This document shows positions 1 to 21,380 of a stretch of 21,808 nucleotides of DNA, in pieces. The notes beneath the pieces were generated by a model that saw nothing but the letters and a program-made list of their open reading frames with translations, made no database searches and was not told the origin of the DNA. The DNA is taken from the IMG/VR virus record IMGVR_UViG_2740892234_000019; one strand, 5' to 3'. The stretch is from a virus (lineage: Duplodnaviria > Heunggongvirae > Uroviricota > Caudoviricetes). The position numbers were made by a program, and so were the translations under genes. Position 1 is the first letter of the stretch. Every line of letters starts with the position of its first letter.

Positions 1-318
1 TTGCCTCCCCCCCGTTGATGGGTAAAATAGCCGCAATTTTTCGTTTTCAACAAGCGCGGCGCGATGCCGCTTACTCAAGAAGAAAGAATTATGACGTTGT
101 CTCCTTATTTGCAAGAGGTGGCGAAGCGCCGCACTTTTGCCATTATTTCTCACCCCAATAATTAAGCCTAAATTAAAGCTCTTTTACTCTTTCAAAGTCC
201 TTTCAGTTAATTGAGTGCTAATCATATAACTCATTAATAACATGATGTTATGTGGTTTCTTTAATTGAAAATTCTTTCATGTAACTTTAAATCGATCAGG
301 TTGCTTTCATCAAAAATC

Positions 319-375
319 TGTACATGCGCTTGTACATAATGTACAAAACAGCAGAGGTGTTTTTTTATTTGTACA
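319..375. promoter_or_regulatory. Four TGTACA hexamers (319-324, 331-336, 340-345, 370-375) just upstream of the integrase start, including the inverted pair TTGTACA-taa-TGTACAA at 330-346
   Basis: Read directly from the sequence; the palindromic hexamer recurs 4 times within 57 bp at -66 to -10 relative to the int ATG. Function (operator or arm-type site) is inferred. Confidence 0.3.
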
Positions 376-384
376 AGGTGAGTA

Positions 385-1602
385 ATGGCGCTGTCTGATG
401 CGTGGTTGCGTTCAGTCGTTGGAAAGGAACGTGATAAGGTTTTGGTTAAATCCGATCGTGATGGTCTGTCTGTCAGAGTATCACCGAAAGGTCGCGTAGT
501 GTTCCAATATCGTTATCAATGGGCAGGGAAAGGTGAGCGCCTTGATATCGGAACTTACCCGGCAACTGGATTAAAAGAGGCCAGAGAAGAAGTTATCCGT
601 CTCCGTGGTGAACTCGAGTCAAACCGCAATCCACGATTAGTCAAGCAGGCTGAAAAACGAAAAGCTACTGAAGCCATGACGGTAGAGTCTGTGATCCGTG
701 CCTGGTATGAAGCATATTGTGTAAAAAATAAAAAAGGTTCTGAACAGATACTCCGCTCGTTTGAGCTGCACCTGTTCTCTAAAATCGGGAATATCCCTCA
801 CGATGCAGCTACATTGCATGATTGGTTAGAAGTCCTGGAGCCTCTTAGCACTAAGACTCCAGCAATAGCAGACCGATTGCTAATTAACGCAAAGCAGGCC
901 CATGTCTGGGCGTATAAGAGAAAGCTCATTGAAACTCGCCCGCTGTCGGATATCACGGGTAAAGATATGGATATCCGTAAAGGTCAGAAGAAACGGTTTC
1001 TGACACATGATGAAATTAAAATCCTTTATGCTGCGATCGATGGTTCTCGAATGGTTCCTAAATACCGGGCCTTCATTAAACTATTGCTGCATTTTGGCTG
1101 CCGTAGTTCAGAGCTAATTACCGCTAGGGTGGATGATTTTGATTTCATTAATAAGGTATGGACTGTACCGCCAGAACGACATAAGACAGGGGATATAACA
1201 GGCGAACCGCTAAAGCGCCCCATTATTGAACCGGTTGAAGAGCTTATAAAGTACGTTATCTCTATGAACAATGGTTCCGATATGCTTTTTACTAAGGAAG
1301 GAAGCAGGGAACCCGTTGGCCGGACATCATTGCAGTCGCTGCCTTACAATTTAATGCAGTACGCATGGCGGCGTTTGGGGTATCAATTCCCTCATTGGTC
1401 TCTTCATGATTTGAGACGAACAGCACGAACAAACTTTTCTGATCTTACTGCACCTCATATTGCAGAAATAATGCTCGGTCATAAACTGCCAGGGGTATGG
1501 CAGGTTTATGACAAGAGCGATTATTTAGATGAACAGCGTAAAGCTTACCAGGCATGGTGGGAGAGAGTTGAATCGATAGTTACTTGTACTTGTTCAGACT
1601 AG
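385..1602 (+). CDS. Phage tyrosine integrase, P4-like
   Basis: 405-aa ORF with AGGTGA RBS 5 nt upstream of ATG. Tyrosine recombinase signatures: GCRSSEL (Arg box), HDLRRTART (His/Arg box) and a C-terminal Tyr (VYDKSDY). Lies at the edge of the prophage. Confidence 0.9.
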   Translation: MALSDAWLRSVVGKERDKVLVKSDRDGLSVRVSPKGRVVFQYRYQWAGKGERLDIGTYPATGLKEAREEVIRLRGELESNRNPRLVKQAEKRKATEAMTVESVIRAWYEAYCVKNKKGSEQILRSFELHLFSKIGNIPHDAATLHDWLEVLEPLSTKTPAIADRLLINAKQAHVWAYKRKLIETRPLSDITGKDMDIRKGQKKRFLTHDEIKILYAAIDGSRMVPKYRAFIKLLLHFGCRSSELITARVDDFDFINKVWTVPPERHKTGDITGEPLKRPIIEPVEELIKYVISMNNGSDMLFTKEGSREPVGRTSLQSLPYNLMQYAWRRLGYQFPHWSLHDLRRTARTNFSDLTAPHIAEIMLGHKLPGVWQVYDKSDYLDEQRKAYQAWWERVESIVTCTCSD

Positions 1603-1735
1603 TACTGACATTTTGCATAGGCAGAACGCAATTATGCATATTGCGGTATAATCCCCTTCTTAAAACTGTAAGAATTGCTTGCTAATCCTTGCAGTTTTTG
1701 ATTATAACATTCTTATTTGTTTATTAGGATTTTTG

Positions 1736-3868
1736 ATGGAACTGTTACAGGAACACGGGGCGATACTTAAAGTTGTAATCATGCCTACTACTGGGGAACA
1801 AACCATAATCCAAGGTTTCGATACTGGCCTCCTCAACCCAGAGATATCCAACATTCTTTTTTTATTGGCCAAAACACCAAAAGAAATTAGTGAGATTTTT
1901 GTCAATGAAAATGATAACTTTCAGCCTACTCTAAGCGGGCTAAATCCTATTTTTTTAATATCTAAAGAAAATCTTGAAAAAATACCAAATATTTATCAAA
2001 CGCCATTTTGCTTAATTTTTTGTGCTAAAGAAGATTTTTCGTATGTTTGTGCTTTAAAAAAACATTTTGCTATACCACCTATAATTTGTTGCAATTCTAA
2101 ACGCGCTGATCTACCACTTAATAAGATTAATAGTATATACTCATTTGATAAGGTGCTCTTCTCTCGGTTGAAATTCATTGAGGATAAAATAAGAAAAAAT
2201 CACAGTGAAAAGAAAATATCAACGAAGTTGAAGCGAAGAGGGGCTTTATTTAATAAATCACCTTGGAGATCGACGCTTAACAATTCAACACTACCCAATG
2301 AGTTGTTAATTGAATCACTTGGCTATATGCTATCTCCACCAAAAAGAATTAAAGATGGTAGTAGCAAAAGAGAGTTTATAGAAATAATACTTCATAGCGT
2401 TGATGCATACACCGAATGTTTAAAGGAATTAGATATACCACTTCCAACGGAAGTCTTACTTTTTGCTCCGGGTATGCACTCTTTTTTATATGATAAAAAT
2501 AATGACTTTTATGAGTTAATAACGGAAAATTTATCCACAATTGAGAAAAAATTCCTTATTGATGGAGTGTTGAGGAATCCAGGCTATTCTGGAATTAGAC
2601 TTGATATAAATTCAGATAGAAAAGAACTTTTTAAAAGTCCTGCTTTCCGTTACCTCACCTCACTAAGACGCGCTGAAATGCGATTAACAACAGCTGCGAT
2701 TACTTTATTTAGCATAAATAAAAAAATCCCAGCAATAAGATTGCCAAATGCAATAAATCATTACTCCAATTATTTGAAAAATCTTGAAGATCTTGCAACT
2801 TCTTCTGGGATAAATAGTGAAGCATTCATCACTAAATCTAAAGCATTCAATACTGTTATTCGAAGAGCCCTTGGTTGCAAGTTGAGAACATATATAAGTA
2901 AAAACTATAGCGATTTGTCCTTTGTTTGTGATGTACCATTGGATTGGATTAGGTTTAATAACATACCTATAATGTTCAGTCATGAGATATCAAGAATAAA
3001 TGCTACGCCTGGTAACGTTCTTCTACAGAGCGCCTCTGCTTTTCCGCGCGTTTTAGTAAAAGCATCTGAGTTGAGAAAGGTTTTAGTTATACGTTCTTTT
3101 GAGCCTGATGATCACTTAAAGTTCATATTAGAGAACGCAATTGAGATATTTAAAAAACAGATGCCAGATCTTGATTGCGAGATTATTGATGTTAGATCGA
3201 AAGCTGAGTTTATTGATGCTCTAAATCAATATCAAGGTCATATTCTTGTTATGGATTGTCATGGAAACCATGATGGCAATGGGAGTCATGGATGGTTAAT
3301 AATAGGTGAGGATAAAGTGGACACTTGGAGTTTGAGAAAAATAGCAAGAATTCCTCCTATCGTAATTCTGAGTGCATGTTTAACATCTGCCCTAAGTGGT
3401 TCTCATGCCTCTGTTGCTAATGGCTTCGTTATAAGTGGTGCATTAAGTGTCATCGGAACATTACTGCCTGTAAATGCGATAGACTCTGCTGTTTTTGTAA
3501 GTCGGTTGATCTACCGGTTTTACGAGTTTCCTTCGACGCTATCTACAAATTTTACACATGTTAATGTAAGGCTTTTTCTTTCTGTTTTTCTTAGGATGTC
3601 CTATGCAAGCGATTTAATAAGAGGATTTTTATCTGAAGATTTGATACCGAATAATTCATGGAAGAAAGATGCAGTTGATATTAACATGTATATAAACATG
3701 CTTCACCATGATTGGTATGATTATGTAATTAACAAATTGACGATGTTAACGGGGCTCACGAAAAAAGATGTACTTGATTTTATCGATAGAAAATTATTCA
3801 TAACTGAAACTATGTGCTATAGCCAAATTGGATTTCCAGATGCAATCACAATTAGTCTTAAAGATTGA
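1736..3868 (+). CDS. Large AT-rich protein with C-terminal caspase-like (CHAT / peptidase C14 clan) domain; candidate stand-alone defence or abortive-infection effector
   Basis: 710-aa ORF from ATG 1736 (AGGA RBS 7 nt upstream; the track ORF starts at an upstream TTG 1679). Composition is visibly AT-rich compared with flanking phage genes. Caspase-fold dyad signature: GHILVMDCHGNHD, then about 38 aa later PPIVILSACLTSA. No Walker A motif; the N-terminal ~470 aa have no motif I can name. Confidence 0.7.
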   Translation: MELLQEHGAILKVVIMPTTGEQTIIQGFDTGLLNPEISNILFLLAKTPKEISEIFVNENDNFQPTLSGLNPIFLISKENLEKIPNIYQTPFCLIFCAKEDFSYVCALKKHFAIPPIICCNSKRADLPLNKINSIYSFDKVLFSRLKFIEDKIRKNHSEKKISTKLKRRGALFNKSPWRSTLNNSTLPNELLIESLGYMLSPPKRIKDGSSKREFIEIILHSVDAYTECLKELDIPLPTEVLLFAPGMHSFLYDKNNDFYELITENLSTIEKKFLIDGVLRNPGYSGIRLDINSDRKELFKSPAFRYLTSLRRAEMRLTTAAITLFSINKKIPAIRLPNAINHYSNYLKNLEDLATSSGINSEAFITKSKAFNTVIRRALGCKLRTYISKNYSDLSFVCDVPLDWIRFNNIPIMFSHEISRINATPGNVLLQSASAFPRVLVKASELRKVLVIRSFEPDDHLKFILENAIEIFKKQMPDLDCEIIDVRSKAEFIDALNQYQGHILVMDCHGNHDGNGSHGWLIIGEDKVDTWSLRKIARIPPIVILSACLTSALSGSHASVANGFVISGALSVIGTLLPVNAIDSAVFVSRLIYRFYEFPSTLSTNFTHVNVRLFLSVFLRMSYASDLIRGFLSEDLIPNNSWKKDAVDINMYINMLHHDWYDYVINKLTMLTGLTKKDVLDFIDRKLFITETMCYSQIGFPDAITISLKD

Positions 3869-3899
3869 CAACTGTATGTAATAAATATGGCATACTTCC

Positions 3900-3940
3900 G
3901 GCACAGAGCGAATATAACAGATCAGGTTTAGCTCTGTGCC
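3900..3940. repeat. 10-bp perfect inverted repeat (GGCACAGAGC ... GCTCTGTGCC) with a 21-nt loop, between the convergent CHAT and xis genes
   Basis: Read directly from the sequence. Could be a bidirectional terminator or a protein-binding site; no clear T-run. Confidence 0.3.
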
Positions 3941-3975
3941 ATAGGTGTACCAACTCTCATCTGAGCTAATGCTCG

Positions 3976-4170
3976 TTACTCAATAACTCCCGCAAATTTG
4001 TAAATCTTGCGTGATGCCCATTTATTTGGGCATGATTTAATATCAGGATCTGGAAAGTCTGGCCTGTATTTCTGGCCAGTTCTCCTGTTTACGCTGTTCC
4101 AGCGAAGAACTGTCGATACTGAAACTCCACAGAAGTTGGCGACTTGTTTAGTTGTCATTAAGTTGTTCAT
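3976..4170 (-). CDS. Excisionase-like small HTH DNA-binding protein (Xis/AlpA-like)
   Basis: 64-aa ORF whose start overlaps the upstream stop (translational coupling). Motifs STVLRW ... DFPDPD ... KIYKF resemble the excisionase-type winged helix. Lies at the int-proximal end of the leftward operon. Confidence 0.55.
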   Translation of the reverse strand: MNNLMTTKQVANFCGVSVSTVLRWNSVNRRTGQKYRPDFPDPDIKSCPNKWASRKIYKFAGVIE

Positions 4171-4790
4171 TACTTTACCTCCTGCGGCGGCTCCGGTAGC
4201 GGCATCCAGTGGGTTACTTTCGATGCCGGTTCTTCCACATCGTCAGTAACTGCCCACCATTTGTTTCTCGACCAATCGTAATACCCTTCGAAGGTATCGC
4301 ACTCAGTCCAGCCGTAAGACTTCCCCCAACACCAAACATACTGTTTATCGTTCGGCATTCGCTCACTACAGCTTATCCAACCATCCGGAGTTACCGGAGA
4401 GTTGCCCGACAGCTCGTTCAACTTGTAAGTCTGGCTTACAGGTTTGGCACCATGAAGCATGGCGGCGCGGCAGGCGTTCCAGCCTTCATCAAAGCCGACT
4501 ATGCCATTATTTAAAGACGGAAGAGCATCCGGCACCACCGACACTGGCTGAGCCATATATAGCGGCTGAACATACCAGCCCTTTGATAACCAACTGTCAG
4601 CAATGTTTTTGCTCCTGGTTATTGCCGGAATACCTAAGCCATTGTCTGAATGAAGCCACGCCACCGGCTCTGCTTCCAGTGATGCCAGAGCAATTTCATA
4701 AGCAAGGCGCTCAACATTGTCTCGCACGTCTAGGCTGCCGATTCGTTCTTTGATTTCTTTAATCTGTTCCTTATCGGTGTAAGTGGTCAT
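4170..4790 (-). CDS. Phage protein with C-terminal DUF551-like motif
   Basis: 206-aa ORF; C-terminal W/C-rich segment ending THWMPLPEPP, as in DUF551 phage proteins; start overlaps the upstream stop. Confidence 0.6.
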   Translation of the reverse strand: MTTYTDKEQIKEIKERIGSLDVRDNVERLAYEIALASLEAEPVAWLHSDNGLGIPAITRSKNIADSWLSKGWYVQPLYMAQPVSVVPDALPSLNNGIVGFDEGWNACRAAMLHGAKPVSQTYKLNELSGNSPVTPDGWISCSERMPNDKQYVWCWGKSYGWTECDTFEGYYDWSRNKWWAVTDDVEEPASKVTHWMPLPEPPQEVK

Positions 4791-5152
4791 TATGCTCCAG
4801 CCTCCGGTGCTTTTGGCATTACTGCCCAGTGAGTGATATTAATATTTTCAAGGTCCCCGATCTGAAATGTCCACTGCCATTCTCCGGTTTCTTTTTGTCC
4901 CCAGGTGTACCAGAGAGAACGCCAGCCAATCAGCCAGCCTTCTCCGTTAGCATCAAATAACAGAACACTTTCATTTGCTGGTGGCAGTTCAACTGATACT
5001 GGTATTACTTTGTTTTCCTGTGCTGCACATTTAGCTTCAAGCGCATCGAATTTACGCACCAGGTATTCAGCATCCGTTTCATTCACTTTCAGGTCTCGTG
5101 GTACACATCTCCCGTGAAGAAACCCTTCCATTTCGAAAACATTCATGCGCAT
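4790..5152 (-). CDS. Phage protein, DUF551-like (yfdS-like position and length)
   Basis: 120-aa ORF ending THWAVMPKAPE; overlaps the stop of the upstream HD-domain gene (ATG at 5152 or 5146). Confidence 0.55.
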   Translation of the reverse strand: MRMNVFEMEGFLHGRCVPRDLKVNETDAEYLVRKFDALEAKCAAQENKVIPVSVELPPANESVLLFDANGEGWLIGWRSLWYTWGQKETGEWQWTFQIGDLENINITHWAVMPKAPEAGA

Positions 5153-5679
5153 TTGCGTAACTCCGATAACTCGTTAAAACGTTCCATAAACATCCCGTAG
5201 GCATGGCCCGGAGCCAGTGGAATAACTTTGAACATCTCTGTTGCCGGGATACCTTCCAGTACTGGCCAGAAAGAGCCATCATCAAGCCCGAGATCGCGGC
5301 GTTCAGTTGCCAGCATGATGAGATCGGCATATTTCACAGGCGTGCTCATAACCGGGGGTAACCCGTATTTCTCACGGATTACGGCGTCTATTTTTTCTTC
5401 CATCCGTTTATAGTCAGGAAGAAGGCGTTTCAGTGGTGCGGGAATGTCCTGGCAATACGCTTCTGTTGCATCATGCATTAACGCTTCAAAAGCAAATTCC
5501 TGCGGTACCAGCTGGCTGCAAAGCACCGCATGTTGGGCGACGCTGTAGAAGTGTGAAAGATGTCCTGCAAAGCGACAGATATTTGAAAGGGAAACCGCGA
5601 TATCGTTAATCACGATGTCGTCTTTATTTATCTTGTCATAATAAAAATGCTTCCCAGAAAAAGTTTTAATAAATGACAT
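5143..5679 (-). CDS. yfdR: HD-domain phosphohydrolase (5'-deoxynucleotidase YfdR-like)
   Basis: 178 aa from ATG 5679 (MSFIKTF...), with GGAGAA RBS 5 nt upstream. HD-domain His and His-Asp motifs (VAQHAVL, ALMHDATEAY). Length and neighbourhood match my recollection of the CPS-53 yfdPQRS block; the symbol is from memory, not a search. Confidence 0.65.
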   Translation of the reverse strand: MSFIKTFSGKHFYYDKINKDDIVINDIAVSLSNICRFAGHLSHFYSVAQHAVLCSQLVPQEFAFEALMHDATEAYCQDIPAPLKRLLPDYKRMEEKIDAVIREKYGLPPVMSTPVKYADLIMLATERRDLGLDDGSFWPVLEGIPATEMFKVIPLAPGHAYGMFMERFNELSELRKCA

Positions 5680-5812
5680 TTTGTTCTCCACGTATATGTG
5701 CTGCACCACGCTGAATTCTGGTAAAAGGAAGCCCTCACCATCCGGCGATTATTGAGTCGATTATGTTTCCATAAATGCCCCCGCAGGGGCATTTGCAGTA
5801 ATGAAATCAGGC

Positions 5813-5822
5813 NNNNNNNNNN
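5813..5822. other. Assembly gap (N x10)
   Basis: Run of N. Right flank 5823-6123 is a ~95% identical copy of 5506-5812. Confidence 0.95.
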
Positions 5823-5996
5823 CACCAGCTGGCTGCAAAGCACCGCATGTTGGGCGACGCTGTAGAAGTGAGAAAGATGACCGGCAAAGCGACAGATATT
5901 TGAAAGGGAAACCGCGATATCGTTAATAACGATGTCATCTTTATTTATCTTGTCATAATAAAAATGCTTCCCGGAAAAAGTTTTAATAAATGACAT
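5823..5996 (-). pseudogene. Partial second copy of the yfdR-like 5' end (MSFIKTF... start at 5996), truncated at the gap; contig-overlap or paralog artefact
   Basis: Sequence nearly identical to 5506-5679 but with point differences; ends at the N-run. Confidence 0.5.
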
Positions 5997-6123
5997 TTTG
6001 TTCTCCACGTATATGCGCTGCACCGCGCTGAATTTGGGTAAAAGGAAGCCCTCACCATCCGGTGATTATTGAGTTAATTACGTTTCCATAAATGCCCCCG
6101 CAGGGGCATTTGCAGTAATGAAA

Positions 6124-7144
6124 TCAGGCGGTGAAAGTACCAATAAAGGTTTCTACTTTGCTGTCTTTGAATTTCTCAACAAGCAGATCACGAAATTCGT
6201 TAGCCATTTCTTCCTGCACCGCTTCCAGCTGAATAATGCGCAGAACCAGTACAGGACGATCGCCAGTGATAATGCTGAGGCGTAATTTAAACGGACGTTC
6301 TTTCAGACCTTCAAACGGAACGCATTTAAATTCAAATGCCACTGGCATAATGTCTTTGGTCTTCGCTTCGACAGATTCCATCAGGGAGCGTTTGCCGCTG
6401 AAGTCATTATCTTCAAAATCAGCGGTCTGGTTTGCTTCAATCGTGATTTTACGGATTGCCGCAGCCGCTTTTGTTGCCTGAATGGCGCCACCATTAGCAT
6501 CAAAGCCCACAAGGTAGTCGGCCCAGTCTTCAATCCATTCTGCCAGNNNNNNNNNNTTTCGCTTCGACAGACTCCATCAGAGAGCGTTTGCCGCTGAAGT
6601 CATTATCTTCAAAATCAGCGGTCTGGTTCGCTTCAATCGTGATTTTACGGACCGCCGCAGCCGCTTTTGTTGCCTGAATGGTGTCACCATTAGTATCAAA
6701 GCCCACAAGGTAGTCGGCCCAGTCTTCAATCCATTCTGCCAGTGATTTCTGGGAGTTACGCTCGCCGTTAACAGACAACAGGGCAGAGAACGGTGCTGTC
6801 TTTTTCAGTTTGAGAGTGGCGGTGTTATCTGCGTGACCTGGTTCATCAATAGTACCCAGGTTAAGCACACTGACGGCACGCATATTATCAGCATCGATAA
6901 AGCAGCGGGTGCCTTCATCTGCAAGATCTTTAGAATAACGGGTAAAGTCATCGATGCTGGCAGTGGAAAGCGCACCACGGAAACGGAAGCGATTTAAATT
7001 AAATTTTTCCAGATCATGAATGCGGAAATTCTCAGGCAATGCCACAGCATCGGCACCAATCTTACTGATAATTTCATTAACACCCTGAGCAGAAATAAGG
7101 GCATGGATTTGATTAATTGCGGTTGCGTCTAAGTTCTGAGACAT
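6124..7144 (-). CDS. Phage protein, yfdQ-like; interrupted by gap and diverged duplicate
   Basis: Track ORFs 6530-7144 and 6124-6510 are the N- and C-terminal parts of one protein. 6557-6742 duplicates 6361-6546 with mismatches. Removing the overlap gives about 274 aa. Family not recognised beyond position. Confidence 0.55.
6547..6556. other. Assembly gap (N x10)
   Basis: Run of N flanked by a ~186-bp diverged duplicate. Confidence 0.95.
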
Positions 7145-11631: not shown

Positions 11632-11641
11632 NNNNNNNNNN
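11632..11641. other. Assembly gap (N x10)
   Basis: Run of N. Confidence 0.95.
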
Positions 11642-11921: not shown

Positions 11922-11931
11922 NNNNNNNNNN
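11922..11931. other. Assembly gap (N x10)
   Basis: Run of N. Confidence 0.95.
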
Positions 11932-14184: not shown

Positions 14185-15174
14185 TTGAGAGCACTGCTGA
14201 CCCCTGAAATTGCCCCGCGTATGGGGATCGTCTTGTTCAGACCAGGTTCAGAGCTGATGCCCCTGTTTATGCAGGGGCGTGTCCTGCTGGAGCCTGAGCC
14301 GGAACGTTATTCATCTTTTGCCAGTGGTGCCGTTCCGGCAGCATCACAACCGCTGGCGGATGATCCTGCCGTTCGGGCCGTGTTCCGCCATGAGGCGGTG
14401 ATCCGTCGTGCTGGTGGCGTGGAATGTCTTGAAAGCTGGTTACTTCGTGAAAAAGGCTGCCAGTGGCCTCATTCCGACTGGCACAGCGAGAACATGACCA
14501 CAATGCGACACGCTCCGGGCGCAATCCGTCTGTGCTGGCACTGCGATAACCAGCTGCGCGATCAGTTCACGGAACGGCTGGAAGCAATGGCAACGGATAA
14601 CTGTGCCCGCTGGGTGTTGTCTGTTGTGCGTCGGGATCTCGGTTTTGATGATAGTCACGTTGTGACAATGCCGGAACTGTGCTGGTGGCTGATTCGTAAT
14701 GACCTGGCGTATGCCTTACCGGAAAGTGCAGCCCGTAAGGCACTGAGATTACCGAAGCNNNNNNNNNNGTCTGTCACCCGGGAAAGTGACCTTGTGCCTT
14801 CGGTTACTGCCACCAGCATCATCCAGGATAAGGCGAAAAAGGTGCTGGCGCTGAAAGTGGATCCGGAGTCGCCGGAGTCTTTTATGTTACGCCCCAAACG
14901 TCGTCGCTGGGTTAATGAAAAGTACACGCGCTGGGTTAAGACACAGCCTTGCGCGTGTTGTGGTAAGCCAGCCGACGATCCACATCACCTGATTGGCCAT
15001 GGTCAGGGTGGAATGGGTACAAAAGCGCATGACCTTTTTGTGTTGCCTTTGTGCAGAAAACACCATGACGAACTGCATGCGGATACCGTGGCATTTGAAG
15101 AGAAGTATGGTTCCCAACTGGAGCTGATATTTCGTTTTATCGATCGCGCGCTGGCGATTGGTGTGCTGTCCTGA
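14185..15174 (+). CDS. DUF968-like protein with C-terminal HNH/zinc-finger-like motif; contains an assembly gap
   Basis: C-terminal CACCGKPADDPHHLIGHG ... LCRKHHDELH. The frame across the gap at 14759-14768 is not trustworthy; TTG start is uncertain. Confidence 0.5.
   Translation: MRALLTPEIAPRMGIVLFRPGSELMPLFMQGRVLLEPEPERYSSFASGAVPAASQPLADDPAVRAVFRHEAVIRRAGGVECLESWLLREKGCQWPHSDWHSENMTTMRHAPGAIRLCWHCDNQLRDQFTERLEAMATDNCARWVLSVVRRDLGFDDSHVVTMPELCWWLIRNDLAYALPESAARKALRLPKXXXXSVTRESDLVPSVTATSIIQDKAKKVLALKVDPESPESFMLRPKRRRWVNEKYTRWVKTQPCACCGKPADDPHHLIGHGQGGMGTKAHDLFVLPLCRKHHDELHADTVAFEEKYGSQLELIFRFIDRALAIGVLS
14759..14768. other. Assembly gap (N x10)
   Basis: Run of N; no flanking duplicate noticed. 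Confidence 0.95.
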
Positions 15175-15787: not shown

Positions 15788-16285
15788 ATGCTGAAACAGC
15801 AGGATATGACAGAAACCGCCAGAGTGGTGTTTAATGAATTANNNNNNNNNNTCAGTTAATACTGACCCAACTATCAGCGGGGTGAACTGGAAAAGCCACA
15901 TCACCAACTGGTCAGCACATACAGTGAGCTGAACCGGCAGTATACGGAACTGCTGAGTGAATATAAAAATTTGCGGCGGTATTTCGGTGTGACGGTGCAG
16001 GTGCCGTACACCGATGTGTGGACGTATAAACCGGTGCAGTACTATCCAGGGAAACATCCGTGCGAAAAACCGGCAGAAATGCTGCGGCAGATAATCTGCG
16101 CGAGCAGTCGTCCGGGTGACCTGGTGGCGGATTTTTTCATGGGTTCTGGCTCAACCATAAAAGCAGCTATGGCGCTCGGGCGTCGTGCAACTGGTGTTGA
16201 ACTGGAGGCAGAACGTTTTGCGCAGACCGTTAAGGAGATTAGTCACATCCTTACATGCTCAATTGATGACGGGAAGGATGGATAA
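15788..16285 (+). CDS. DNA methyltransferase (beta-class N6A/N4C, PF01555-like); interior lost in gap
   Basis: C-terminal part carries HPCEKP and FFMGSGST (motif I FxGxG) and ends at 16285. An 18-codon N-terminal piece (15788-15841) precedes the gap at 15842-15851. The true gene must be longer than drawn. Confidence 0.55.
15842..15851. other. Assembly gap (N x10)
   Basis: Run of N. Confidence 0.95.
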
Positions 16286-16688: not shown

Positions 16689-17511
16689 CAGGTGTGCTGT
16701 GGTTTTAGAGACACCGGAAACGAGAATGATGCGGGTTTGCTGGTGCCGGGATAGAGTCGCCGGAGGTCATGACATAGAGCAAAAAAGGAATGTGCATGCA
16801 AATACACACCTCTTCGGAGAGCTCTTCTTTATATGGATGAGCCTCAAGGTCAATAGTTTATCTGTTATGTATTCATATGTTGTTACTTATATAATCCATA
16901 CGGGCATATCATCAGTACACACATACTATTATGGCATTTTATTTTTGTTTTAACTGAATTCCCGGGGCACTCTTTTTGATTTCTGATAAGGAACCAGAAT
17001 TTTCTGTTAAATGGTGTCACGTTGTAAATGGTTAATGGAAGCAGCTTATTATCCATAATCACACCTGAGTTAACAGGTGTGAGAATACTTCCGGGTGGCA
17101 GGAACACATCTGACTGATACCAGATTATCAACTTTATTTTACACCATACAGTTGAAAACGTTATTCCGCTTGATGGGCATATCACTGTGTCAATAACTAT
17201 CCATTCCATCTTTTAACCTTCTCGGTACACATTGCTTTCGATTGTTTTGCTAAAAATCATAGTCAATAAATCAGTGTAACTCATTGAAAAAGATCGTCTT
17301 CTTTGTCTTCCTGGGGTTTTCTTTTCTAATTTTGTATCACTTTGGTTCAAGTTGTTTCATTTTTTTGTAATACAAATTAGCAGGATGAGCGGGAATATAA
17401 AAAAATCGGATGTTTTTGTAATGGATATTATTTTTTTTGTAAAATAATGTATTTTTATTTAAATTTCTATCAGAAAAGAATTTATTGTTCCTTTATATGG
17501 TGGAAAAGGTC

Positions 17512-19449
17512 ATGGTATTTAAACACTACGATGTGGTCAGGGCGGCGTCGCCGTCAGATCTTGCGGAAAAGCTGACACAAAAACTGAAGGAGGGGGGGCA
17601 GCCATTTGGCAGCCCGGTGGCCATCACGCCTTATACTCTGATGCAGGCCATTGCGGCGGAAGGTGATGTCACCACACCTGTGTTGGTGAAGCCGTCGGAT
17701 GGAGAAGGCACAGTAATCAGCGCCACCAGAGACCCGGAGTATTACTTTGTTGTGGTTCTGGCGGGGCAGTCAAACAGCATGGCATATGGTGAAGGCCTTC
17801 CGCTGCCGGAGACATATGACCGTCCGGACCCGCGTATTAAGCAGCTGGCGCGCCGCAGTACGGTGACACCGGGCGGTGCAGCATGCAAATATAACGACAT
17901 CATTCCGGCGGACCATTGTCTGCATGATGTGCAGGACATGAGCCGTCTTAACCATCCGAAAGCGGACCTGTCAAAGGGGCAGTACGGAACCGTGGGGCAG
18001 GGGCTGCATATCGCCAAAAAACTGCTGCCGTTTATACCGGCGAATGCGGGCATTCTGCTGGTTCCGTGCTGTCGTGGTGGTTCAGCGTTCACCACCGGAG
18101 CCGATGGCACATACAGTGACGCGAGTGGTGCCTCGGAGAATTCAACCCGCTGGGGTGTGGACAAGCCGCTGTATAAGGACCTTATCGGTCGAACAAAAGC
18201 AGCACTGAAGAAGAATCCGAAAAATGTGCTGTTTGCCGTGGTGTGGATGCAGGGGGAATTTGATTTTGGCGGTACGCCGGTAAATCACGCCGCACAGTTT
18301 GGTGCGCTGGTTGATAAATTCCGTGCAGACCTGGCGGATATGGCAGGCCAGTGCGTCGGTGGCTCTGCTGGCGGTGTTCCCTGGATATGCGGGGACACGA
18401 CGTATTTCTGGAAGCAGAAGAACGAATCCACGTACCAGACGGTGTATGGCAGCTATAAAAACAAAACGGAAAAGAATATCCATTTCGTACCGTTCATGAC
18501 GGATGAGAACGGGGTGAATGTGCCGACGAACAAACCGGAAGAAGACCCGGACATTCCGGGTATCGGATATTACGGTTCGAAATGGCGTGACAGCTCAGCC
18601 ACCTGGACGTCACAGGACAGGGCGAGCCATTTCAGTTCATGGGCTCGCCGCGGGATTATTTCCGACCGTCTGGCAACGGCGATTTTGCGCCATGCGGGAA
18701 GAGTGGCGCTAAACGCGGGGGCATCATCGACAGTATCAGAGGTGCGCCCGTCATCGCCTTCCGGTGCAGAAGCCACAGGCGTCACAACACTGCTCTCTTA
18801 CCTTGCCAGCGAGTCAGAGGGAAGCCTGAAAGTACAGGGATGGTCAGCCAGTGGCGGCAGGGCAGAAGTGGTCAGCGATGCGGAGGGAACCGGAGGTAAG
18901 GCAGTGAAGCTGACCAAGGAAGCCGGTAAAAGCAGCTGGGTGCTGGAGTACGCCGCGGGCAACGGTGCGGCTCTGTTACAGAAAGGGGGGCAGATTCGCT
19001 GCCGCTTTAAGGTTTCGGGAGCGCTGGCTGCGAACCAGTATGTTATGGCGTTTTACTGGCCGGTATCTTCACTGCCACAGGGCGTTGCCCTGACCGGAGA
19101 CGGGGGGAATAACCTGCTGGCAGCGTTCTACATCCAGACAGATGCAAAAGACCTGAATGTGATGTACCACAATGCGAAAGTGGCGACAAACAACCTGAAA
19201 CTGGGAACCTTTGGCGCATTTGATAACGAATGGCATACGCTGGCTTTCCGCTTTGCCGGGAATAACAGCCTTCAGGTGACGCCGGTTATTGATGGTCAGG
19301 ATGGCACACCGTTCACGCTGACGCAGTCACCGGTCAGTGCCTTTGCGGCGGATAAACTGCATGTGACAGACATTACCAGAGGTGCGACTTACCCGGTACT
19401 GATAGACAGCATTGCGGTGGAAGTGAACAGCACAGACACTGCGGCATGA
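17512..19449 (+). CDS. nanS-p: Prophage sialate 9-O-acetylesterase (NanS-p type, SASA/DUF303 esterase domain plus C-terminal domain)
   Basis: GQSN esterase motif (VVVLAGQSNSMAYG). N-terminus MVFKHYDVVRAASP... and position between Q and the lysis genes match the esterase I recall from Stx/lambdoid prophages. Start ATG 17512 is preferred over the track TTG 17485. Confidence 0.75.
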   Translation: MVFKHYDVVRAASPSDLAEKLTQKLKEGGQPFGSPVAITPYTLMQAIAAEGDVTTPVLVKPSDGEGTVISATRDPEYYFVVVLAGQSNSMAYGEGLPLPETYDRPDPRIKQLARRSTVTPGGAACKYNDIIPADHCLHDVQDMSRLNHPKADLSKGQYGTVGQGLHIAKKLLPFIPANAGILLVPCCRGGSAFTTGADGTYSDASGASENSTRWGVDKPLYKDLIGRTKAALKKNPKNVLFAVVWMQGEFDFGGTPVNHAAQFGALVDKFRADLADMAGQCVGGSAGGVPWICGDTTYFWKQKNESTYQTVYGSYKNKTEKNIHFVPFMTDENGVNVPTNKPEEDPDIPGIGYYGSKWRDSSATWTSQDRASHFSSWARRGIISDRLATAILRHAGRVALNAGASSTVSEVRPSSPSGAEATGVTTLLSYLASESEGSLKVQGWSASGGRAEVVSDAEGTGGKAVKLTKEAGKSSWVLEYAAGNGAALLQKGGQIRCRFKVSGALAANQYVMAFYWPVSSLPQGVALTGDGGNNLLAAFYIQTDAKDLNVMYHNAKVATNNLKLGTFGAFDNEWHTLAFRFAGNNSLQVTPVIDGQDGTPFTLTQSPVSAFAADKLHVTDITRGATYPVLIDSIAVEVNSTDTAA

Positions 19450-20372: not shown

Positions 20373-20992
20373 ATGAGCAGGAAATTCCGCTATGGTTTAT
20401 CAGCGGTAGTTCTGGCGCTGATTGCCGCAGGTGCTTCTGCGCCTGAAATCCTCGACCAGTTTCTGGATGAAAAGGAAGGCAACCACACCACGGCATACCG
20501 TGATGGTGTGGGTATCTGGACCATCTGCCGTGGAGCCACCCGGGTGGATGGTAAGCCTGTTATTCCTGGCATGAAGCTGTCGAAGGGGAAATGCGACCAG
20601 GTTAACGCCATTGAGCGTGATAAGGCGCTGGCATGGNNNNNNNNNNGATTCCTGGCATGAAGCTGTCGAAGGAAAAATGCGACCGGGTTAACGCTATCGA
20701 ACGGGATAAGGCGCTGGCATGGGTGGCGAAGAACATCAGAGTGCCACTGACTGAACCCCAGAAAGCGGGTATTGCGTCATTCTGTCCTTACAACATTGGC
20801 CCAGGTAAGTGTTTCCCGTCGACGTTTTATAAACGAATTAATGCAGGAGATCGAAAAGGTGCCTGCGAAGCGATTCGCTGGTGGATTAAGGACGGTGGCA
20901 GAGACTGCCGTATTCGCTCAAATAACTGTTATGGTCAGGTCTCACGGCGTGACCAGGAGAGCGCGCTGGCGTGCTGGGGAATTGACAGATAA
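20373..20992 (+). CDS. SAR endolysin (T4-lysozyme-like, phage 21 R-type); interrupted by gap and diverged duplicate
   Basis: N-terminal signal-anchor-release segment GLSAVVLALIAAGASA; catalytic E-D-T region DEKEGNHTTAYRDGVGIWTICRGAT. 20647-20716 repeats the ~75 bp before the gap with mismatches, so the frame shifts across the junction. Confidence 0.8.
20637..20646. other. Assembly gap (N x10)
   Basis: Run of N flanked by a diverged duplicate. Confidence 0.95.
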
Positions 20993-21370: not shown

Positions 21371-21380
21371 NNNNNNNNNN
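21371..21380. other. Assembly gap (N x10)
   Basis: Run of N. Confidence 0.95.

Follow-up and report, generated by a model that had tools for sequence, protein, structure and literature searches.

The defence gene described here belongs among the bacterial proteases of the CHAT family, of which the closest described relative is Borvo. Borvo, which has BovA as its sole gene, appears in a review table as a CHAT-protease (PF12770) system attributed to Millman et al. (2022); the bioRxiv version of that paper contains neither the name Borvo nor a CHAT system. The phenotype is known from Stokar-Avihail et al. (2022/2023), in which Borvo from E. coli 403116 was tested in MG1655 under its native promoter. 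Phages T5, SECphi4 and SECphi18 escaped it through missense mutations that affect their DNA polymerase at its proofreading cleft, co-expression of the SECphi4 DNA polymerase with Borvo was toxic, and infected cultures collapsed or arrested at high multiplicity of infection (MOI) but survived at low MOI, which is the pattern of abortive infection. Three further groups of proteins bear comparison with it. Csx29 (TPR-CHAT), the immune protease of the type III-E CRISPR complex Craspase, is activated by target RNA; separase is a eukaryotic CHAT-clan protease of 1000-2000 amino acids (aa) regulated by securin and Cdk1; and the SAVED-CHAT proteins linked to CBASS or type III CRISPR and the gasdermin-activating proteases are CHAT-fold effectors of abortive infection. 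Here, we have analysed a 21,808-nucleotide stretch of DNA of a tailed phage (Caudoviricetes; IMG/VR record IMGVR_UViG_2740892234_000019), called the window below, in which an AT-rich gene is found between those for the integrase (int) and the excisionase (xis). A first-pass annotation made from the letters of the sequence had taken this gene to be a candidate for an undescribed, single-gene defence module encoding a CHAT/caspase-like protease. On the grounds of sequence the gene is bovA and a member of Borvo: all of the defining features that can be computed were found in it, the phenotype being taken from the literature. The explanation that best accounts for the locus, and in which we have high confidence, is that bovA, the one-protein Borvo system, is carried as a self-contained AT-rich cassette between int and xis in a lambdoid E. 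coli prophage that integrates at prfC.

Identity of the gene between int and xis

The open reading frame (ORF) begins with an ATG at 1736, ends with a stop codon at 3866-3868 and encodes 710 aa, and its position between int and xis was confirmed by matches of the two neighbours to profiles of an integrase and an excisionase (Table 1). An alternative in-frame start, a TTG at 1679 that would give a product of 729 aa, is used by PHROG 34827 and in the annotation of phage Ayreon; the start at 1736 is favoured by RefSeq, by phage cdtI and by the conserved MEL... N-terminus of the homologues. A chance ORF is effectively excluded because this one extends over 2.1 kb in DNA of 34% GC and has 833 family representatives (clustered at 50%, E ≤ 1e-3), most of which are 700-770 aa long. 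The AT-richness that had been evident by eye was also borne out by measurement, the GC content of the gene being 0.34 (0.27 at third codon positions) compared with 0.45 for the integrase gene and 0.49 for the remaining window.

The protein was matched over practically its whole length by the PADLOC model of BovA (PDLC03831; E 2.1e-241, 801 bits, aa 4-709 against profile positions 3-715 of 720), and this was the top score of the 11 family members that were scored, the others having 592-760 bits. The gene is therefore an already known defence gene, which is in the PADLOC catalogue and bears a CHAT label in RefSeq, and the proposal that the module was undescribed has to be given up: Borvo was named in 2022 and its trigger was reported in 2022-23. 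In Pfam, CHAT (PF12770) was matched over aa 488-592 with 26.5 bits against a cut-off of 24 and was the only match at E values up to 10. Thus of the two protease families suggested for the protein by the first-pass annotation, CHAT was found but Peptidase_C14 was not, and the likeness to caspases is one of fold only. PHROGs places BovA in a family of unknown function (PHROG 34827).

In comparison with Borvo no difference could be detected: the window gene shares with it the full-length profile, the size of about 710 aa, the host species, the single-gene constitution, the CHAT domain and an upstream region of its own. The remaining CHAT proteins are much more distant. Although BovA and Csx29 are both CHAT immune proteases, their identity is only 12-15%, no TPR match to BovA was present in Pfam, neither Cas7-11/gRAMP, Csx30/31 nor a CRISPR array is found near bovA, and Borvo is activated by a phage protein, the DNA polymerase, rather than by RNA. 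The NCBIfam model of Csx29 (NF041237) gave 14.7 bits, far below its cut-off of 300. With separase the link is through the fold only, at 10-12% identity. Unlike the SAVED-CHAT and gasdermin modules, BovA has an N-terminal module of its own and no SAVED domain (Pfam, PADLOC), and neither the window nor the surroundings of the homologues contain a cyclase or gasdermin partner. Membership of Craspase, CBASS/SAVED-CHAT or a gasdermin module was rejected because the partner genes and domains are absent and the Csx29 score is so far below its cut-off. The protein also has no Walker A motif, as had been stated, and no cyclase, gasdermin, CRISPR or NTPase partner was present in the window; likewise, the annotated 42-kb neighbourhood of the gene in E. 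coli 2013C-3264 contains no cas genes and no cyclase or gasdermin gene.

Predicted fold, catalytic dyad and N-terminal module

Both halves of the expected His-then-Cys arrangement are present, as HILVMDCHG at aa 502-510 and PPIVILSACLTSA at aa 540-552, but the distance between His509 and Cys548 is 39 residues and not the approximately 38 first given. The two residues were invariant in 161/161 full-length family members, the most distant at 21% identity, as well as in all 32 closer homologues, and in the 161 sequences D507, G510, S546, A547 and T550 were invariant or nearly so along with them. The conservation among homologues on which the protease assignment was to be judged is therefore complete. 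In proteases of clan CD the His and Cys stand at the C-terminal ends of central strands, and this is how they are arranged in the BovA model, where His509 comes after predicted strand 503-508 and Cys548 is the end of strand 542-549.

A search of solved structures with the sequence of the whole protein gave nothing at E values up to 10, and so a comparison of folds was required. The AlphaFold2 model used for this was built on a 32-sequence alignment and had a mean predicted local distance difference test score (pLDDT) of 87 and a predicted template modelling score (pTM) of 0.88. When it was compared with solved structures using Foldseek, 33 out of 33 matches at E ≤ 0.001 were CHAT-clan proteases, comprising Csx29/TPR-CHAT of Craspase, separase, the DdvA anti-sigma factor and SAVED-CHAT. 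The caspase-type alpha/beta fold of CHAT and clan CD is present in the predicted model, and its core (aa 393-610) gave fold matches to Csx29, separase and gingipain. BovA is thus predicted to contain a two-lobed unit like that of separase, Csx29 and gingipain, made up of a pseudo-caspase and an active caspase (CHAT), and the reading of the protein as CHAT/caspase-like is upheld at the levels of both profile and fold.

The conservation of the family differs strongly by region, with a peak in the CHAT core and a minimum in the first 165 residues, for which a generic flavodoxin/CheY-like alpha/beta fold is predicted. When segments were used separately in BLASTP, the core was detected in 160/160 relatives and the N-terminal 165 residues in 59, and in many of the full-length representatives the alignment begins only at about residue 180. 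The N-terminal module is therefore a candidate for a sensor or specificity domain.

The int-xis cassette and its distribution

Positions 1-5812 of the window form an uninterrupted block, free of runs of N, that contains the bovA region and is 99.95% identical to E. coli 2013C-3264, where the match to bovA itself is 100% at the DNA level. The prophage that carries bovA in that genome is lambdoid and follows directly on yjjG. A partial coding sequence (CDS) of 69 bp is present between yjjG and the integrase gene in all of the related genomes, and the remnant at the left prophage junction of the window (Table 1) is one that we take, from the gene order yjjG-prfC of E. coli K-12, to be the N-terminus of prfC. 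Every carrier inspected had the same order, yjjG, the 69-bp remnant, int, bovA, (xis), DUF551, yfdR, yfdQ, yfdP, of which the portion from int to yfdQ is common to phages cdtI and Ayreon.

Even in a sensitive blastn mode suited to distant matches, a single type of bovA was found in 5426 complete E. coli genomes; 32 of them have it, as one chromosomal copy in each and always at least 99.5% identical. WP_000421881.1, which is this very protein, falls into a cluster made up of 508 sequences from E. coli. In the carriers inspected, the E. coli gene was always in the int-xis slot of lambdoid prophages integrating at prfC, and it occurs there also in phages cdtI and Ayreon. By contrast with the 32 genomes that have bovA, an integrase at least 95% identical to that of the window is present in 700 of the 5426. 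In four prophages with the same integrase but no bovA, homology to the window ended at 1618-1635 and resumed at 3900-3940, and these breaks define a cassette of about 2.3 kb, which takes in the upstream region, TATAAT included, and has its right-hand end at a hairpin. Together with the other cargo of the slot, these results support the view that bovA was acquired horizontally as cargo of an integrase-proximal hotspot, as the first-pass annotation had proposed in calling it a moron.

The hairpin, which lies between the convergent bovA and xis genes, is based on the inverted repeat that had been reported there, GGCACAGAGC at 3900-3909 and GCTCTGTGCC at 3931-3940, a perfect stem of 10 bp with a loop of 21 nt that can be extended imperfectly to arms of 25 nt. 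It is predicted to be stable on both strands (z -4.1 and -3.4), and none of 200 shuffled sequences folded equally well. Despite this stability it was not called in a scan for intrinsic terminators, because its loop is long and a U-tract is absent, and we reject its reading as a canonical intrinsic terminator; it may act as a bidirectional transcription stop.

Different genes occupy the slot in other strains. Strain 143 has a dGTPase-family defence gene there, and strains CE10, A3 and APEC E19035 have three unannotated genes (Table 1), the products of which matched nothing in Pfam or PADLOC. As bovA and the dGTPase gene share the slot elsewhere, these three proteins are, by position, candidates for defence genes of unknown kind.

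Table 1. Coordinates of bovA, of its parts and surroundings in the window, and of other genes found in the int-xis slot (positions with an L prefix are those of the loci from the strains named)
Feature	Position	Strand	Basis
Remnant 5' end of host gene at left prophage junction	91..156	+	Direct reading; encodes 22 aa
Tyrosine integrase, 405 aa	385..1602	+	Pfam Phage_integrase, Arm-DNA-bind_3, Phage_int_M; phrog_1
Variable cargo cassette, ~2.3 kb, with bovA and its own upstream region (approximate boundaries)	1633..3925		Homology breaks; GC 0.32-0.39
TATAAT, candidate -10 element within cassette	1647..1652	+	Direct reading
AGGA ribosome-binding site, 6 nt 5' of ATG	1726..1729	+	Direct reading
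bovA, BovA protein 710 aa, sole Borvo component	1736..3868	+	RefSeq WP_000421881.1 'CHAT domain-containing protein'; PADLOC BovA, Pfam CHAT
N-terminal module, aa 1-165, predicted generic flavodoxin/CheY-like alpha/beta fold, most variable part of family	1736..2230	+	
Predicted active caspase-like (CHAT) core, aa 393-610	2912..3565	+	Pfam CHAT aa 488-592; most conserved region; fold matches
Codon of predicted catalytic His509 (DCHG), end of predicted strand 503-508	3260..3262	+	Invariant, predicted structure
Codon of predicted catalytic Cys548 (LSAC), end of predicted strand 542-549	3377..3379	+	Invariant, predicted structure
Hairpin between convergent bovA and xis, at right-hand cassette junction	3900..3940		Folding z-scores
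Excisionase (xis), 64 aa, convergent with bovA	3976..4170	-	phrog_1553 E 1.9e-35; weak Pfam HTH_17
Other slot cargo: dGTPase-family defence gene, E. coli strain 143	L012:6096-7322	-	PADLOC dGTPase E 8e-105; HD + HD_assoc
Other slot cargo: WP_015674827.1, 413 aa, strain CE10	L011:5909-7150	+	Unannotated
Other slot cargo: WP_225092812.1, 342 aa, strain A3	L013:6000-7028	+	Unannotated
Other slot cargo: WP_000040219.1, 239 aa, APEC E19035	L014:6010-6729	+	Unannotated

The gene was damaged in all nine matches of the O121 lineage, which comprise named O121 strains and Centers for Disease Control and Prevention (CDC) isolates sharing the lesion. Eight of the nine have the same lesion, seen as a match of 2132 bp in which the CDS is annotated as split; in the copy that was aligned, from strain RM8352 (L015:1501-3632), the loss of one base from an A5 run at codon 254 leaves CDSs of 260 and 396 aa. 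The ninth copy, in GTVSS-020, has an additional insertion of IS600 in bovA. The split gene is not necessarily dead, because an active two-gene 'Borvo-like' system built of two parts of BovA has been described in Streptococcus thermophilus.

Outside E. coli, divergent homologues of BovA were found in regions of conjugative elements or beside an SMC-like ATPase, and the three such loci compared had no conserved neighbour gene in common. This agrees with a single-gene system, and with the lack of a partner in the window it sustains the description of bovA as a stand-alone gene. At one of these loci, inside a conjugative element, the homologue has as neighbour a gene for an 811-aa protein with a weak match to HATPase_c_3 (L003:3192-5627, minus strand), and at another a gene for an 881-aa SMC_N/AAA_23 protein (L006:3052-5697, plus strand). 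These ATPase-like neighbours may be further defence genes in small defence islands.

In phage cdtI, bovA (L001:6133-8265) is situated about 2 kb from cdtABC, the operon for cytolethal distending toxin (L001:1814-3914), with two small ORFs and the integrase gene between them, and a truncated cif effector gene is also nearby. As cdtABC and bovA are in one inducible phage, toxin and defence gene move together. Further along the window, an AT-rich stretch (17001-17500, about 32% GC) precedes an ORF for 654 aa of about 57% GC (17485-19449, plus strand) with DUF1737, SASA (sialate O-acetylesterase) and DUF6645 domains; this is presumably similar to the NanS-p esterases, which in lambdoid prophages of pathogenic E. 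coli are encoded downstream of the late-gene or toxin region. The window is also interrupted by eight runs of exactly 10 N (5813-5822, 6547-6556, 11632-11641, 11922-11931, 14759-14768, 15842-15851, 20637-20646 and 21371-21380). At the first three, which were checked, the pieces joined overlap by 0.2-0.6 kb on 2013C-3264, and two of the pieces are only 96-97% identical to it. The N runs and the duplicated ORFs of the window (e.g. 5143-5709 and 5628-6023) were accordingly rejected as biology and ascribed to scaffolding of repeated lambdoid prophage sequence.

A proposed mode of action and its alternatives

Abortive infection, which had been raised as a possible role of the gene, is the published mode of action of the Borvo family, and together with the predicted architecture it suggests how the protein might work. 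BovA would be made in the lysogen as a single-chain protease that stays latent and consists of the variable flavodoxin-like module, a helical insert and the two-lobed pseudo-caspase and active-caspase (CHAT) unit with its His509/Cys548 dyad. On infection by a sensitive lytic phage, the DNA polymerase of that phage, through something that depends on the proofreading cleft, would activate BovA, the dyad would cleave at least one essential protein, and the infected cell would arrest or die before phage release, so protecting the lysogen population and its prophage. The step that kills the cell is, we infer, proteolysis by the dyad. A more specific form of this proposal, which we advance tentatively and consider to be doubtful, is that the fast-evolving N-terminal module binds directly to family-A DNA polymerases of phages at their proofreading (3'-5' exonuclease) cleft and so frees the pseudo-caspase/caspase unit, which resembles that of separase, for cleavage of an essential host protein, with N-terminal variants among the 800-plus representatives recognising different phage proteins. 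No such mechanism of direct binding and pattern recognition for BovA was found in the literature searched.

Several points weigh against this account of a self-contained, polymerase-triggered protease. By the statement of Stokar-Avihail et al. themselves, direct and indirect sensing are not told apart by their data, a 2024 paper still describes Borvo as 'poorly understood' and its activation as 'unclear', and our literature search found no dedicated mechanistic paper on Borvo from 2023-2026 and no report of His/Cys mutants, protease activity or a substrate of BovA. Variability is the one ground on which we infer a sensor role for aa 1-165, and part of that variability may be an effect of the lower sensitivity of BLAST for short segments. 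The window allele is very probably of the same type as the one tested from E. coli 403116, a judgement made indirectly from the single bovA type in complete E. coli genomes, from the top score of the window protein with the BovA model and from the cluster of 508 E. coli sequences that contains it; for the tested gene, the trigger paper and the T7-kinase paper give only the strain, 403116, and a plasmid, SG178. Lastly, of the expression signals claimed for the gene, the AGGA and the TATAAT are both in place, but a consensus promoter scan called none at 1647-1652, because an acceptable -35 is absent, and promoter-like sites in the bovA region were not more frequent than in shuffled sequence. Going by the sequence, a promoter at the TATAAT is plausible; the published Borvo plasmids relied on expression from the native promoter.

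Three other explanations were considered and all are less likely than the abortive-infection account. BovA could be an antiviral protease that does not kill the host but cleaves the phage DNA polymerase or another replication protein, escape then being the loss of a cleavage or recognition site. This would fit with escape mutations that fall in one phage protein across three unrelated phages, and with the high substrate specificity of other CHAT proteases, for example separase for cohesin and Csx29 for Csx30. However, the toxicity of the polymerase together with Borvo in uninfected cells, and the collapse or arrest of cultures at high MOI, point to a host-directed, abortive outcome, and we regard the explanation as improbable. 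Even less probable is a pseudo-protease, in which the CHAT domain serves as a scaffold without catalysis and toxicity comes from some other activity such as binding of a nucleotide or host factor by the N-terminal module, since that module is the least conserved part of the protein and is without a Walker A motif, whereas the invariance of the dyad and its flanking residues over such divergent sequences is hard to explain without catalysis.

A function outside phage defence, with bovA as a virulence moron encoding for instance a protease effector, is brought to mind by the presence of cdtABC and the truncated cif gene within a few kb of it in phage cdtI and by the many carriers that are pathogenic E. 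coli, including Shiga toxin-producing E. coli (STEC) O145 and O121 and avian pathogenic E. coli (APEC). We give this almost no credence, because the Borvo family is defined by an anti-phage phenotype shown in a K-12 background, homologues are found in unrelated bacteria on conjugative elements and beside defence-like genes, and the slot occupied by bovA contains a dGTPase defence gene in another strain.

What the locus adds to the knowledge of Borvo is its context: in E. coli the system is phage-borne cargo, a cassette of about 2.3 kb between int and xis of lambdoid prophages that integrate at prfC, including the inducible phages cdtI and Ayreon. As inducible phages carry it, natural lysogens could serve for the study of Borvo as a form of prophage-mediated exclusion. 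The predicted architecture, with its two-lobed unit, invariant dyad and variable N-terminal module, provides a guide to constructs for work on the mechanism, and the frameshift in O121 is a natural variant of either the loss-of-function or the split-gene kind. For new defence functions, the three unannotated genes that occupy the same slot in other strains are better candidates than bovA itself.

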